Of a DNA stretch of 64,000 nt, positions 19,133 to 55,087 are shown one piece after another. Both the position numbers and the translations under genes were made by a program. The DNA comes from a virus (Duplodnaviria; Caudoviricetes): IMG/VR virus record IMGVR_UViG_3300039167_000005, positions 19,298 through 83,297 of that record, one strand, 5' to 3'. Position 1 is the stretch's first letter; each line of letters starts with the position of its first letter. The notes beneath the pieces were generated by a model that searched no databases, had not been told where the DNA came from, and worked only from the letters and a program-made list of their open reading frames with translations.

Positions 19133-20387
19133 GTGGCTCTGAAGTATGTAGTAAAGAATGACGGCAGTACTCAAGATTTCTGCCCAGACAAGCTGAATAA
19201 ATGGGCACAGTATGCAACTAAGACTGGGGGTAGTTGGTCAGAGATTGCTCTGGCCACATACAAGCGACTCCCAGAGACAGCGAAAACTTCTGACATCCAC
19301 CAGACAATGATTAATGTCTGTCTAGATAAGGAAGATATTAACTTCTCTCGGATTGCAGCACGGCTGATGGTCGCTACGATTCGTAAGGGCATGGAGCGAC
19401 AGGTTGGTGTTACAGATCGCCACTCTTTTAAAGAAATCTACGATGCCCTGATCTCTAAAAATGTATGGGATTCTGAAACTCTTCCGACTTACAACCCTTT
19501 GTGGGAAAGCTGGTATCAAGAGATTTATAACGAGCAGCTTGAGTATTGGCAGATTGCCCAATGGTACGACAAGTACGCCTTGAAGGTGAACGATGTTGTT
19601 GTAGAGACCCCCCACATTGGTTGCCTCGGGATGGCTCTTGCATTACACGGTGATACACAACTAGCTTTTGATCTGGCGAAGTCTTTGGTTAAAGGTCAGT
19701 ACAACCTTCCGACTCCAGCACTGAACGGGATGCGTAATGGCGATTTCAACACCATCTCATGTTGCGTGATTACTGGCGGCGACAGCATGGAGAGTATCGG
19801 CGTTGCCCAGCACATCGCCTACACCATGACAGCAAAGAAAGCTGGTATTGGTTTGGAGATGGATACTCGGTCGAAGGGTGCGGATGTTAAAGCTGGTAAA
19901 GTGAAGCACCTTGGTAAGCATCCAATCTTCTCTGCTGTTGATAAGCTTGTGAAGGAAATGACTCAGATTACTCGTGGTGGCTCTGCAACTGTTACGTACA
20001 AGTGCATTGACCCAGAAGTGGAGAGCATGATCCTTTGGAAAACTCAGCGAGTAGATATCGAAACTCGATTGGATAAGTTGGATTTCAGCTTCGCATACAA
20101 TGATGCTTTCCTACAGGCTGTAGTAAGTGATGGTGATTGGTATCTGTTCGACTTGAAGGATGCTCCTGAAGTACACAGTGCTTTCTATGTAGAAGATGCA
20201 GATCAATACAAATCTATTGCTGAGAAAGCTGTTAATGCAGGAGTGAAGCATAAAGCAGTAAAGGCTCGGGAGATTTTGAAACTCTTCCTCACCGCTCGAA
20301 ATGAGACTGGTCGGGTGTATAGTATCAACGTAACTCGTGCAAACAAGCACACTCCGTTTGAAGATGTGGTACGACTCTCTAATCTGT
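19133..20387 (+). CDS. nrdA: ribonucleotide reductase class Ia alpha subunit, exon 1
   Basis: LPTPAL, SCC, AGIG, TQITRGGS; ends ...SNL plus the first base of the catalytic Cys codon. Confidence 0.93.
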
Positions 20388-20633
20388 GAAATTTGACGCA
20401 GCGTCACATAGTAATGTGTGAATGAAAATCATGTGAACTCAGGGAAAGCTAAGGGACAGATTGTTCTATGCCAATCCTGATCCAAGCCTCTAACGAGGAA
20501 GGAGCAGAGACTATCCCGCAAGGGAGTAGGTTGTAAGCACAACCGAAGCGCATGACGCCCTTTACAGGGTGATGATATAGTCCGACACTCAGGGAAACCT
20601 GAGAGAAGCCTAGCGAACTTCATAACAGTAAAG
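20388..20633 (+). mobile_element. group I intron (246 nt, no ORF) in nrdA
   Basis: removal restores SNL-C-QEI; P1 CUGU/GCAG with U.G; P10 UUGAC/GUCAA; P7 GACUA/UAGUC; terminal G. Confidence 0.93.
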
Positions 20634-49391: not shown

Positions 49392-49420
49392 TTGACATAT
49401 AACTGAATGTATGCTAAAGT
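49392..49420 (+). promoter_or_regulatory. tRNA operon promoter
   Basis: TTGACA-17-TAAAGT with TG extension. Confidence 0.8.
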
Positions 49421-49427
49421 GGACTCT

Positions 49428-49632
49428 TAACAGATGAGAAAAGCGTTGCTTCGATTTCTCTCCTTCTGACGTTTTCTCCTTGCGTCAGAAACCGCTACCT
49501 AACGGTAGCTCTCCGTCAGCTCCGGGTGTCCTCCTCCCGCTCAGAGCTGGCATTAAGATTCTCGTATTGTAGTTTCATCTATTACGGGAATCTTTCTTTT
49601 AGGGATTGTGAAGTCTTTAAAAGAAAGATTCT
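49428..49632 (+). ncRNA. structured leader or sRNA with CUCC(U) loops
   Basis: six successive hairpins, no ORF with an RBS. Confidence 0.5.
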
Positions 49633-49634
49633 TT

Positions 49635-49709
49635 TGGGAAGTAGCTCAGAGGCAGAGCGATCCGCTGTTAACGGATTGGTCGTAGGTTCGATCCCTACCT
49701 TCCCAGCCA
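49635..49709 (+). tRNA. tRNA-Asn(GTT)
   Basis: cloverleaf, TTCGA T-loop, encoded CCA. Confidence 0.95.
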
Positions 49710-49714
49710 AATAT

Positions 49715-49791
49715 CTTCGTATAATGTCAATCGGTAGACGGCCTGCTTTGGAAGCAGGAGGTTGGAGGTTCGAGTCCTCCTGCGAAGACCA
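49715..49791 (+). tRNA. tRNA-Pro(TGG)
   Basis: C1-G72, A73, encoded CCA. Confidence 0.93.
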
Positions 49792-49796
49792 GATTA

Positions 49797-49872
49797 GCCG
49801 TCATAGCACAGCAGGTAGTGCAGCTCACTTGTAATGAGAAGGTCGAGAGTTCAAATCTTTCTGACGGCACCA
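49797..49872 (+). tRNA. tRNA-Thr(TGT)
   Basis: GCCGTCA/TGACGGC acceptor, CT-TGT-AA loop, CCA. Confidence 0.92.
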
Positions 49873-49875
49873 TAT

Positions 49876-49951
49876 ATTCTCGTAGCTCAGTCTGGATTAG
49901 AGCAAGGAGCTTCTATCTCCTAGGTCGTAGGTTCGAATCCTACCGGGAATG
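49876..49951 (+). tRNA. tRNA-Arg(TCT), CCA not encoded
   Basis: AGGAG-CTTCTAT-CTCCT arm; TTCGAAT T-loop. Confidence 0.9.
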
Positions 49952-49957
49952 AACAAA

Positions 49958-50045
49958 GGATTCCTTTCCTCCCACCGGCATGAACGTAGGCGCGTTTATA
50001 AGGGAGGTTGGTTCGCGTGAGGATCATAACCTCGGGAGTCCACCA
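49958..50045 (+). ncRNA. tRNA-like RNA A (acceptor stem, T-arm, ACCA)
   Basis: GGATTCC/GGAGTCC stem; TGAGG-ATCATAA-CCTCG arm; no D or anticodon arm. Confidence 0.65.
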
Positions 50046-50048
50046 AAT

Positions 50049-50138
50049 ATGACAGCCTCTTTTGAGGATATTCCCGTAAGGGTGTACCGGATGTGTCCCA
50101 CAAGCGTAGAAAAACGATACGAGACGCCTGTCATTCCA
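50049..50138 (+). ncRNA. tRNA-like RNA B (7-bp closing stem, TCCA)
   Basis: ATGACAG/CTGTCAT plus T-CCA; internal hairpins. Confidence 0.5.
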
Positions 50139-50143
50139 ATAAA

Positions 50144-50218
50144 GCGGGTAAGTTGTTTACGGATACACGGCATCCTTCCAAGTTGCAATAGTCAGATCGT
50201 TACTGACTACCCGCTCCA
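50144..50218 (+). tRNA. atypical tRNA-Gly(TCC)
   Basis: GCGGGTA/TACCCGC, U73, CCA, CT-TCC-AA loop; T-loop ATCGTTA. Confidence 0.8.
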
Positions 50219-50248
50219 AGTTCCCGCTCTGCTTATCACATCGGGCTT

Positions 50249-50272
50249 ACCCACTTCTTGTGGGTTTTCTTA
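50249..50272 (+). terminator. terminator of the tRNA operon
   Basis: ACCCAC-TTCTT-GTGGGT followed by a T-run. Confidence 0.7.
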
Positions 50273-50371
50273 TTTCCTCCCGACAAGGAATCGTCTTTGT
50301 TCCACATAGACGTTAAAGAAAGAGTGAGGGTGAAAGTCCCTCAATTTCTATTCAAGAATTCATGGTGAAAT

Positions 50372-51178
50372 ATGCAAGTATCCCTGCAAAGAGACAATGG
50401 GTTTGTCGATCTTTATCCGCTCACCCCGTATTCAGCAGGAACTAGCCTGCAAATCACAAACCAATCTGGTCATTCCATCTATCTATCCCAAGACACTGTA
50501 GCTCCTACATCCCGTGTAATGAGCTTTCCCGTCCTCCCCGGACAAACTGTGATTGCACATGGTGGAAAGACCCATCTCTGGATCAGCTCAGATGGTGGGA
50601 TTGGCACTGTACAAACTCTCACTGACACAATCAGTCCCTTCATTGCCACAGACCTCCCATCCGATCTCTATACATCCGAGAAAGAAGGCATTCGTCGTCT
50701 GCGTGTTGACGTAGCACAGACAGGCTTCTTCGATGGTAGGCAGTTTGAGTTTATCAAGAAATTTACAAGTCCTGTAGTTTATCGTTTCACCTCTCCTCTT
50801 CCATTCATTCTGCAATTCCAAGACCTTACAGTAAATACTGGTAAGGTTGAATTATTCGCTTGGCATTCGAGTAATGTCACTCCTTCTGGAACATGGATAA
50901 CTGATCCTACTCCAATTTGGAGACTGAATGAGTTTAATACTTCATATACAAGACAAGCAACTATTGAGTCTGGTGGCACTGTAACTGTAGCTAACCAGAA
51001 TCTCTATAGGGATTATATTGTAATTGAAACAGCAGCATCTACAGGGCAGCGTACAAGCGTTGGTACACACCAAGCTGATGAGCGCTATCACATGCCAGGA
51101 ACATATTATGTCCAACTTGCAGGTGCTGGCACTGGAAGTTATCACATTAAGTGGGAAGAACGTCCTTACGGGATGTAA
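50372..51178 (+). CDS. hypothetical protein, possibly virion-associated
   Basis: 268-aa beta-rich ORF ahead of the packaging genes. Confidence 0.65.
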   Translation: MQVSLQRDNGFVDLYPLTPYSAGTSLQITNQSGHSIYLSQDTVAPTSRVMSFPVLPGQTVIAHGGKTHLWISSDGGIGTVQTLTDTISPFIATDLPSDLYTSEKEGIRRLRVDVAQTGFFDGRQFEFIKKFTSPVVYRFTSPLPFILQFQDLTVNTGKVELFAWHSSNVTPSGTWITDPTPIWRLNEFNTSYTRQATIESGGTVTVANQNLYRDYIVIETAASTGQRTSVGTHQADERYHMPGTYYVQLAGAGTGSYHIKWEERPYGM

Positions 51179-52447: not shown

Positions 52448-52549
52448 GTGAGTAAAGAAGAGAAGAAAGTATTTGGGCCTGCTAGTAAAAAGCAGGCCAT
52501 GTTCCTACAAAGTAATGCCGACATCATCGTATATGGCGGAGCCATGGGT
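52448..52549 (+). CDS. terL: terminase large subunit, exon 1 (34 codons; not in the ORF track)
   Basis: GTG start; FGPASKKQAMFL...IIVYGGAMG, first half of Walker A. Confidence 0.9.
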
Positions 52550-52821
52550 AAACTTCACTGCCCCTTCTACAAGAAATTGTAGAAAGATAACTCTTTTAAT
52601 TGCTGGAAACTCCTAACGTAAAGACGAGGACAATCAGCAGCCAAGCCCTAAAGGGAAGGCTCATCGACTATCCCGCGAGGGAGTAAGATCAAGTGATCTG
52701 AAACGGAGAGAGTCCTAACGTAAAGACGAGGACTAAGATATAGTCAGAACTATATGGAGACATATAGCAGAAACAGTTTTTTGTTTCGGGGAGAGATTAA
52801 CGAACTCTCTTGAACATTTTG
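52550..52821 (+). mobile_element. group I intron 1 in terL (272 nt, no ORF)
   Basis: removal gives GGAMG-GGKT; P1 GGGU/GCCC; P7 GACUA/UAGUC; ends in G. Confidence 0.9.
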
Positions 52822-54090
52822 GGTGGTAAGACCTACAACGGTCTTATGCGACATTTACGATGGGTTGATGACCCTCTTTACAGAGGGTATGTGATTCGTA
52901 AACACCAGACAACTCTGGCTAAAGCCGGTGGTGTTATCGACGAATCTAAAGGTTTATATAAAGACGTATATCCAGATGCTGTATATAAGGCTAAGGAAAT
53001 GCGTTGGATCTTCCCTTCAGGTGGTCAAGTTGCCTTTGGGCACCTAGATACCGAGGAAGATGCTGAGAAATATCGTGGGTTACAGATCAGTGCTGCAATG
53101 CTGGATGAAAGTACGCAATTTTCTGAGGAGAACGTGCTTGTCGTTTTATCCCGTCTTCGTACACAAGCGAAGATGAAACCTTCGCTTTGGCTAACTTGCA
53201 ACCCCTCCCCAACATCATTTATTAGACGCTGGATTGATTGGTGGATTATCCCACAAGGCGAAGAGAACTCTGGTCGCCCCGACCCAGAACGAGACGGTAA
53301 GATTCGTTGGTTCATTCGTGATTCTAGTGAAATGATCTGGGCTGACACGAGAGAAGAACTCCTAGAGAAGTACGGTAATCGTGATCTGAATGGTAATCTT
53401 ATCCCAGATGAGTCAGAACATCAACATTGCCGACCACTTTCTTTGCAGTTTATCAGTGCAACCATCTTCGATAACCCTCCGCTGCTTAGGGCAAACCCCG
53501 GCTATTTGGCAAACCTTCAAGGCTTGAAACGAGTTAAGAGGGAGCGCGACCTCTACGGGAGTTGGGACGTAAAAGAGGAGGTTTCAAATTTCTTTCAGAA
53601 GGATTGGACACTCCCTGTAAAGTACCACGAGCAAGAGTTTGTGTCCTATGTTCGTGCGTGGGACCTTGCTGGAAGTAAGCCCTCAGAGGTAAATACAAAT
53701 CCAGATTTTTCTGTCGGCGTTTTGATGGCCCGCACAAAGCAAGGTAGGTATGTAATCATTGATGTCGAAAGGTTCCGCGAAAACTACGGGACTGTAATGC
53801 AGCGTATCATTGATTGTGCCCGAAAAGACCCTTATGGAACCAAGATTCTCTTGCCGAAGGAGCCGGGACAAGCAGGTAAGATTGCAGCCGGCGCTCAATT
53901 GAAGGCTTTGCAGTATGAAGGGTTTACCCCTGCTTTTATGGGGACGGGGAGTAAGAGTAAAGTCTTACGTTTTCAACCGTTTGCTACTGCTGCCGAGATG
54001 GGGCTTATTGATTATATCGAGGGTCCTTGGAATGATACTTTCTTTGATGAACTCGAACAGTTCACAGGAGAAAGGAAGAATAAAGACGAT
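52822..54090 (+). CDS. terL: terminase large subunit, exon 2
   Basis: GGKT, Walker B AMLDESTQ, TCNP, RAWDLA, C-terminal ...KNKDD. Confidence 0.93.
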
Positions 54091-55087
54091 TGACAAACTG
54101 GTCGTCTATAAACTCCTCTAATTCGGGGAACATCTCTATAAGAATTTAAAGAGACAATCCCGAGCGAAGCCTAGAAATAGGAACGTGTAACGACTATTAT
54201 GTAGGGTCAAGTGGCCCGAAACGGGGAGCACGCTTTAGAGCGTGAAGAGATAGTCTGCTCTGCATAGCGATATGCAGCACCCACTAAGTTAATAATATAG
54301 GAGAATTTCTATGGGACGTAAAGCTCTAACTGTAATTGAAATTGGCGATGTGATGCCCACTAACAAGTACGGAGATGTCCGGGTTGTTGAAAAGCAAGGT
54401 CAAAAGTTTCTGGTGTCTTTTGTAGATTCTGGTTACGAGACTCTGGTTCACAGGGTAAACCTAATAGCTGGTAAAGTCAAAGATTACACAAAACCTCACC
54501 ACGCGTTGAAAGACTGGGAAGATTGCCAAGAGCCGGGAATCTCCAACAGTGGACACAAGTTTACCATCATCAAGAAGAACGCCAAGAAGTGTATCGTTAA
54601 GTTCAATGATACAGGCTACATTCGAGAGTGTTTTATTGAAAACGTGAAAGTTGGTAAAGTCTCTGACCCATACAGCAAGAGTTTCCTTGGTATAGGTTAT
54701 CTTGGAGAGTATTCCAAATCAAAGCCTTACTGGAAACAAGCTAAACAACTCTGGAGCAACATGATGAAGCGTTGCTATAACCCTAAAGATGACAAAGGGT
54801 ACTACGGACGTTGTTTTGTCGATGATCGCTGGAAGTGTTTTGCTAACTTCCTAGAAGATTTGCCGAAGTTAGAGGGTTTTGATGATTGGCTTCTTGGTTT
54901 TGAGGAAGGTAACACTAAGTACAATCTAGAGAAAGACTTGAAGATTCCGGGGAATGACACGTATTCCCGAGAAGCTTGTATGTTCTTAAGTGAACATATT
55001 AACAAAGGTGCTACATCCCGTAATAACTACGGTAGAGATTAAAGTGGGTGGTCAAGGAATTAACGAGCCTTGATTAACAAGTAAATG
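54091..55087 (+). mobile_element. group I intron 2 in terL (997 nt) carrying an endonuclease
   Basis: removal gives KDD-QVDA; P1 AGACGAU/GUCGUCU; P7 GACUA/UAGUC; CACCCACU/AGUGGGUG loops out the ORF; ends in G. Confidence 0.93.
54311..55042 (+). CDS. intron-encoded HNH-like homing endonuclease
   Basis: W..MMKRCY...W.CFANF...LEKD...YS...C.F.....N; duplicated N-terminal domain. Confidence 0.8.
   Translation: MGRKALTVIEIGDVMPTNKYGDVRVVEKQGQKFLVSFVDSGYETLVHRVNLIAGKVKDYTKPHHALKDWEDCQEPGISNSGHKFTIIKKNAKKCIVKFNDTGYIRECFIENVKVGKVSDPYSKSFLGIGYLGEYSKSKPYWKQAKQLWSNMMKRCYNPKDDKGYYGRCFVDDRWKCFANFLEDLPKLEGFDDWLLGFEEGNTKYNLEKDLKIPGNDTYSREACMFLSEHINKGATSRNNYGRD

Follow-up and report, generated by a model that had tools for sequence, protein, structure and literature searches.

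A candidate small non-coding RNA of an uncatalogued phage family in the tRNA operon of a Caudoviricetes genome

The window analyzed in this work is a stretch of 64,000 nucleotides (nt; positions 19,298 to 83,297) of an 83-kb IMG/VR virus record of the Caudoviricetes, IMGVR_UViG_3300039167_000005, whose nearest cultured relative is Pseudomonas phage vB_PsaM_M1 (Ounavirinae; portal identity 45%). The segment 50049-50138 of its tRNA operon, referred to here as RNA B, encodes, as judged by comparison with relatives, a small non-coding RNA (body of 86 nt) that belongs to an uncatalogued phage family. This family occurs in at least eight different phages. A first-pass annotation of the window had taken RNA B for a real structured RNA not described before, as opposed to a tRNA in decay, and this was borne out, as the relatives showed no degenerating canonical tRNA; its placement of RNA B in a tRNA transcription unit, arranged like a processing unit, also stood.

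Comparison among the family members showed a predicted four-way junction of helices P1 to P4, with a pseudoknot of 3-4 bp between an internal loop and the P4 loop (Table 1). The 7-bp closing stem followed by T-CCA and the hairpins CCTC-TTTT-GAGG and CCC-GTAA-GGG were present as first described, whereas the interior, formerly called non-cloverleaf, has the topology of a four-arm junction and one of its stems had been mis-assigned. This stem, GCGT/ACGC, is complementary in the window but is not conserved, GCGT being gone in the orthologue of locus L052; the 3' strand GACGC (50123-50127) pairs instead with GUGUC (50093-50097), a pairing kept in 9/9 members with compensatory changes in four of the five pairs. 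P1 was complementary in all nine members (7-13 bp), with sequences unrelated outside the three orthologues, and in the six shorter members P2 was a short hairpin directly after P1, often with a GNRA or UUCG loop, which single-sequence folding did not call in L104. The first base of the core paired with the base just before P4 in every member (GC in five, AU in two, and CG in two), so that the predicted four-way junction has no unpaired bases; P2 and P4 both abut P1, and zero unpaired junction bases were counted in the six four-way members. P3 was 96% paired, with a compensatory change in all three pairs, and its arm contained a conserved internal loop, UAUY opposite UGNNCCGGN, below CCC-GNRA-GGG; variants of P3 were the stem GUGA/UCAC in L104 and a 33-nt insert in L059 and L062. 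P4 was paired in 45/45 cells. The pseudoknot joins GNNC of the internal loop with the GNNC that comes after CCACAAGC in the P4 loop, and it covaried at pair 18-41 (AU 3, UA 3, CG 1) and pair 19-40 (GC 7, AU 1, UA 1). The proportion of cells paired in the proposed structure was 94.8%, as compared with 67% when shuffled and ≤61% when slid; double (compensatory) changes appeared in 10 of 13 pairs, and around 30 loop and junction nucleotides were invariant across the family. RNAalifold on an unfitted MAFFT alignment recovered P4 and scrambled P1 and P2, the sequences of which are unrelated between members. A GUAUY:GAUAC pairing is possible as well, and both of its strands are invariant, hence it gives no covariation signal. 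Inner stems considered for the 25-nt loop (CGU/ACG, CGUA/UACG, and CUCG/CGAG) were rejected, as they were not kept among members.

In three members (L059, L062, and L100) the same core lay in a larger unit, with a fifth hairpin between P4 and the P1 3' strand. The loop of this hairpin was UGCAAUU in two of them, T-loop-like by eye, which suggests a tRNA-like frame round the same core. The members with the extra hairpin fit a payload carried in different stabilizing frames.

Further relatives of the phage were reached via homologues of the downstream 268-aa protein, and RNA B was present in 3 of approximately 10 relatives examined, its orthologues being located at L052:112-198 and L054:2851-2938. 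P1 (AUGACAG/CUGUCAU) was unchanged in both of them. P2, CCUC-UUUU-GAGG in RNA B, was CCUUC-AAAA-GAAGG in L052 and CUUUC-UUCG-GAAAG in L054, and the P4 stem changed from GUGUC/GACGC to GCCAC/GUGGC and GUGAC/GUCGC, respectively, with compensatory substitutions in both helices; CCGG, CCACAAGC, and ACGAUACG were identical in the three copies. The 3' end UAA of L054 pairs with an upstream UUA, extending P1 to 10 bp. The position of the RNA in the tRNA cluster also varied, as it was the first unit in L052 and the last one in L054. The nearest genome, G001 (94% portal identity), kept both flanks and had no RNA B; it carried another cassette set made of odd tRNA-like units, a truncated tRNA-Arg, and an HNH-type open reading frame (ORF). 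In L048, an ORF for a DUF559 endonuclease replaced unit A, RNA B, and the 5' half of unit C. The operon thus appears to be rebuilt unit by unit, and RNA B would therefore be an accessory cassette. The model R1, described below, found no member in the more distant relatives L105-L107, in G001, in vB_PsaM_M1, or in T4, and distant homologues of the downstream protein (P0011, P0015, and P0031) belonged to other phage types, with no tRNA cluster there.

The wider family was obtained by scanning IMG/VR and a species-genome collection with an exact 17-base pattern from the invariant core and then with a relaxed form of it. Six more members were found (L059, L060, L062, L100, L101, and L104), other pattern hits being attributable to chance, and an identical copy of the L060 member was present in a metagenome-assembled genome (MAG) of Proteobacteria (L087). 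R1 is a covariance model of the 60-nt core built from six cores, RNA B among them. Members were defined by a core of ≥45 bits, a P3 arm with the UAUY/UGNNCCGGN loop, and a 5-bp P4 with CCACAAGC-N8-AACGAUACGA. The nine distinct members scored 45-82 bits against ≤26 bits for chance pattern hits; RNA B, itself part of the model, scored 75.1 bits, the three members found after R1 was built 45-66 bits, and the six non-operon members 45-74 bits. None of these six lay in a tRNA cluster, the sole nearby tRNA being 1.1 kb off in L104. Their neighbours differed (a Tad2-like gene and a portal gene, a major head protein, a ribonucleotide reductase, a helicase, and unknown small ORFs), and the lack of a common neighbour gene speaks for the autonomy of the RNA. 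In L060, the gene immediately upstream of the RNA (L060:3127-3828) has a Tad2-like (Thoeris anti-defence 2) domain. The word UGACAG, located on the P1 5' strand of the three tRNA-operon copies (window 50050-50055), is found again as the P2 loop UGACAGUGAA of L059 and L062.

RNA B had no match in Rfam at E ≤ 10, and the sites of the six further members had none in Rfam 15. The ribozyme models of Rfam 15 (twister, twister-sister, hatchet, pistol, hammerhead, and hepatitis delta virus-like) gave no match at E ≤ 10 in window 49560-50380 or in L062 1-480, and none at the gathering score in the nine loci. Only the four tRNAs of the operon were matched by blastn against 50,697 phage records, no exact 18-19-mers of RNA B were found in IMG/VR, and a portal-based metagenome scan returned short contigs only, with no homologue of RNA B. 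The L059 and L060 members had no blastn match in phage or plasmid collections, R1 found no member in 300 bacterial genomes sampled around the copy-bearing MAG, and a literature search on the invariant strings retrieved unrelated primers only. The acceptor pattern ATGACAG...CTGTCATTCCA was also tried, and its 25 matches in IMG/VR were all unrelated.

RNA B was clearly different from a tRNA. The Rfam tRNA model (RF00005; cut-off of 29 bits) scored the four neighbouring tRNAs at 57-68 bits and gave nothing at units A, B, or C, even at E ≤ 10 with lax filters. ARAGORN never called RNA B in its ps80, ps60, intron, or mitochondrial modes; unit A was called at the 60% threshold only, with a 2-nt "anticodon". 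RNA B has neither a 7-nt anticodon loop nor a T loop, P3 being capped by the tetraloop GUAA and P4 enclosing a 25-nt loop. It resembles a canonical tRNA in its four helices round a junction, in the 7-bp terminal helix stacked on a 5-bp helix, in U-CCA, and in its location in a tRNA operon, but it has no D loop, no T loop, and no junction linkers. Allo-tRNAs have a 12-bp acceptor branch arranged as 8/4 or 9/3, together with a T loop, a long variable arm, and an anticodon (PMC5389517); compared with these and with tRNA-Sec (PMC5389517), the branch of RNA B is 7+5 bp, without T loop or anticodon. No transfer-messenger RNA was found by ARAGORN, and P1 has G3-C instead of G3:U70, with no tag frame.

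The first-pass annotation had further considered consecutive units of this kind improbable by chance, which was correct for the row of units; a single one is at chance level. A 7-bp stem (≤1 G-U) plus NCCA closing 60-110 nt occurred 44 times in the 83-kb genome vs. 31 ± 6 in shuffles and, as the pattern is near the shuffle level genome-wide, one such unit is uninformative. Six of these units, three of them tRNAs, were tiled head-to-tail within 49635-50218, and tRNA-Arg (UCU), whose CCA is not encoded in the window, lies among them. With a rate of around 1.9e-4 per position, the chance of a further unit starting in a 5-nt window is around 1e-3, as estimated from the genome count. Because the single pattern is common, the argument rests on the tiling, that is, on six units with 3-5-nt spacers around RNA B; as first noted, the spacers are AAT (3 nt) after the end of A at 50045 and ATAAA (5 nt) before the start of C at 50144. 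The fold energy of RNA B was mildly better than in shuffles (z = -1.96). That RNA B is a decaying tRNA gene or a chance arrangement seems extremely improbable: the operon is a hot spot of recombination, where relatives carry truncated tRNA genes and others with internal deletions, and 7-bp stems with NCCA are frequent by chance, but four helices show compensatory changes and the loops are invariant in nine members from unrelated phages, and no residual tRNA signal was detected.

For RNA B, we infer as the simplest reading that it is released as a discrete RNA, and a stable trans-acting RNA released by tRNA processing is the explanation to which we lean, with confidence a little better than even. 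The RNA would be a movable cassette inside the tRNA operon of this phage lineage; RNase P would cut its 5' end, the usual 3' trimming would follow as for its neighbours, and the RNA would then accumulate. In what is the weakest step, it might act in trans, with the invariant pocket between its two loops as the binding site of a protein or small ligand. Lacking an anticodon loop, it cannot decode. Stacked on the 5-bp P4 and followed by U-CCA, the 7-bp P1 gives the geometry of a 12-bp acceptor/T-stem minihelix, with U at -1, and such a minihelix with CCA is an accepted substrate of RNase P and 3' trimming enzymes. In addition, the core appears in three settings, namely in tRNA operons, in larger units with an extra hairpin (T-arm-like in two), and alone, which points to a payload with its own activity, delivered by phages via tRNA processing.

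Several points weigh against this explanation. The family comprises nine sequences in all, they were aligned by fitting to the model, and the pseudoknot came out of a scan over all column pairs; four adjacent antiparallel pairs are unlikely by chance. Fold energies across the family were unremarkable (z from -1.1 to -2.4). CCA was present at the 3' end in one of the nine members, that of the window; both orthologues (UUAU in L052 and UAA in L054) and the six others (AUGG, AACU, CUGU, CCUU, and so on) were without it. The string CCAAUAAA-GCGGG of the window resembles ACCAAUUAU-GCGGG in L052, where it is formed by the end of tRNA-Pro and the spacer in front of unit C; from this likeness the tail may be a by-product of cassette joining. 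P1 ranges from 7 to 13 bp across the family, and therefore the tRNA-like 7+5 geometry is not general. Invariant loops together with covarying stems are typical of ribozymes and riboswitch aptamers, not of protein-binding RNAs. Finally, in L059, L100, and L104 the RNA seems to be followed by the start of an open frame at a distance of 20-35 nt, and in L060 a terminator comes after it, both of which would suit a cis element.

The first-pass annotation had placed RNA B in a class of CCA-RNAs possibly served by phage ligase, kinase, and nucleotidyltransferase. Such a class was not sustained, as eight of the nine members, including both orthologues, are without CCA, and selection appears to keep the interior of RNA B, not its end. 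A CCA-defined tRNA mimic, charged or used as decoy for enzymes attacking tRNA ends and maintained by those phage enzymes, would account for the tRNA minihelix made by P1, P4, and U-CCA, for the U preceding the 5' end, and for the same ends being present in neighbours A and C; kinase-like, phosphoesterase, and weakly supported nucleotidyltransferase-like genes are also found in the window. We nevertheless regard it as very unlikely, given the members without CCA and the fact that the conserved part is the interior. The enzyme link did not hold either: the gene previously named "ligase" had no ligase-family match, G001 has both the ligase-like and the nucleotidyltransferase-like genes and no RNA B, and four other carriers, two of them 95-96% complete, lack both.

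A minority possibility, to which we give a low but appreciable probability, is that the family represents a new catalytic or ligand-binding RNA class, either a self-cleaving ribozyme or an aptamer in tRNA-like frames. A sponge for a host immune signalling nucleotide would be one example of such a class, linked to the L060 member lying directly after the Tad2-like anti-defence gene.

In the first form, a self-cleaving ribozyme would punctuate polycistronic phage transcripts and, in the operon, help to separate neighbouring RNAs. Its stems covary while the loop and junction nucleotides are invariant, the members are dispersed over phage intergenic regions and have no neighbour gene in common, the docking of the internal loop on the terminal loop at the four-way junction has a parallel in twister-sister (PMC5660989), and HDV-like (hepatitis delta virus-like) theta ribozymes are known beside phage tRNAs (PMC10879173). 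We consider this form unlikely. No Rfam ribozyme matched at E ≤ 10 at RNA B or L062 (other members were compared at curated thresholds only), the loop has 25 nt vs. 8-9 nt in twister and twister-sister, and no candidate cleavage site could be named; with spacers of 3-5 nt, moreover, RNase P cuts at the 5' ends of the neighbours would already separate the units.

The second form, a ligand-binding aptamer serving as riboswitch for the downstream gene or as free small-molecule sponge, seems quite unlikely. The conservation pattern is aptamer-like, in L060 the RNA is followed within around 10 nt by a terminator-like hairpin and then by an ORF, a ribosome-binding site and start codon were seen by eye 20-35 nt after P1 in L059, L100, and L104, and the position of the L060 member directly after the anti-defence gene would suit it. 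The downstream genes, however, are mutually unrelated, the RNA is followed in the window and L052 by tRNA genes, which would be unexpected riboswitch targets, and no alternative pairing of P1 with an expression platform was found.

As regards the surroundings of RNA B, 49392-50275 reads as a single putative transcription unit, with a promoter-like site, a structured leader, four tRNAs, units A, B, and C, and a terminator (Table 1). The terminator-like hairpin is conserved in G001 and L048. RNA B and unit A had been grouped as one class, which is not supported: the interior of A differs from that of B, no homologue of A was found among the relatives fetched, it did not match R1, and A is not a relative of B. 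Unit C was missed by default ARAGORN in the window and by Rfam. It has homologues at L052:290-365 and L057:3980-4054, both intact, and at L048:1302-1338 and L049:2311-2343, where it is interrupted by the DUF559 endonuclease ORF and carries an internal deletion, respectively. A coding reading of A to C was discarded, the ORFs 49980-50309(+) and 50024-50188(-) having no Pfam or PHROG family match; one of these two ORFs extends through the terminator. Elsewhere in the window three group I introns were observed (52540-52767, 54035-54277, and 20378-20604), two of which split the large terminase gene, and in L049 one intron lies upstream of the terminase ORF.

Table 1. Predicted features of RNA B and of its tRNA operon in the window.
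Feature	Coordinates	Strand	Remarks
P1 5' strand	50049..50055	+	AUGACAG
P2 hairpin	50056..50067	+	CCUC-UUUU-GAGG
P3 arm	50068..50092	+	Closing pair A50068-U50092; loop UAUU (50069-50072) opposite UGUACCGGA (50083-50091); CCC-GUAA-GGG (50073-50082)
Pseudoknot 5' strand	50084..50087	+	GUAC; pairs with GUAG 50106-50109; 3/4 pairs in B (UAC with GUA)
P4	50093..50127	+	Stem GUGUC/GACGC round 25-nt loop CCACAAGC-N8-AACGAUACGA, mostly invariant
P1 3' strand	50128..50134	+	CUGUCAU, abutting P4
U-CCA tail	50135..50138	+	This genome only
Promoter-like site ahead of operon	49392..49420	+	TTGACA-17-TAAAGT; consensus match alone
Four canonical tRNA genes	49635..49952	+	Asn GUU, Pro UGG, Thr UGU, Arg UCU
Unit A	49958..50045	+	7-8-bp closing stem; T-arm-like hairpin UGAGG-AUCAUAA-CCUCG, then A-CCA
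Unit C	50144..50218	+	Non-canonical tRNA-Gly(UCC), T loop AUCGUUA (A54/U58); relaxed and mitochondrial-mode ARAGORN
Intrinsic-terminator-like hairpin	50249..50275	+	ACCCAC-TTCTT-GTGGGT plus T-rich tail, operon end

The operons of the relatives showed further units. Unit D, a non-tRNA unit of around 100 nt with a 7-bp closing stem, was present at L048:1342-1443 and L052:369-465 and absent from the window; its stem is TACCGTG/CACGGTA with T-CCA in L048 and TACAGTG/CACTGTA without CCA in L052, a compensatory change. Genes similar to tRNA-Arg(UCU), uncalled by default ARAGORN, occurred at L004:5204-5286, L048:306-390, L049:2188-2270, and L054:2762-2845, with a minimal D arm, a variable arm of around 20 nt, and an AUCGU-type T loop in three of the four (canonical UUCGACU in L004); in G001 one such gene comes after a truncated copy of the canonical tRNA-Arg. 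A tRNA-like gene at L057:2735-2860 (GACGAAT...TTCGTC, canonical T arm) has an insert of around 60 nt in the anticodon region, which may be an intron or a cargo insert. A conserved non-coding leader was seen upstream of the tRNA units in two distant relatives (L054:2540-2690 and L057:2550-2650). Endonuclease ORFs lie inside the operon at L004:5417-5990 (G001; HNH-like by eye) and L048:631-1311 (DUF559), an arrangement that recalls segB in the tRNA cluster of T4; they probably drive the turnover of cassettes. The relatives thus show a tRNA operon rebuilt unit by unit around homing-endonuclease genes.

The family of RNA B would be an addition to RNA databases and, with 86 nt, the RNA is small enough for direct tests. 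With twister and twister-sister it shares covarying stems, invariant loops, and a scattered occurrence in phage DNA; it differs from them in its pseudoknot partners, in having no recognizable cleavage-site motif, and in the absence of an Rfam match. The start of the P4 loop, CCACAAGC, presumably resembles the twister L4 word. Twister-sister likewise brings an internal loop and a terminal loop together over a junction of several helices (PMC5660989). The HDV-like theta ribozymes are a case of functional non-tRNA RNA directly beside phage tRNA genes (PMC10879173), but the family of RNA B has no nested double pseudoknot and no HDV-type match in Rfam, and six of its nine members lie away from tRNAs. 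The T4 RNAs rnaC and rnaD (species 1 and 2), annotated as small stable RNAs, likewise follow tRNA-Arg(UCU) head-to-tail and close the 3' end of a tRNA cluster in which a homing endonuclease gene is also present. To our knowledge, the function of T4 species 1 and 2 is still unexplained. They differ from RNA B in their length (119 and 139 nt) and in having no closure by a 7-bp stem plus NCCA, and R1 found nothing in the T4 tRNA cluster (L022), indicating no homology of RNA B to rnaC or rnaD. Ever since T4 species 1 and 2, phage tRNA clusters have been known to hold stable RNAs other than tRNAs; the T4 tRNA-Arg/rnaD/rnaC series is the closest known arrangement to that of RNA B.
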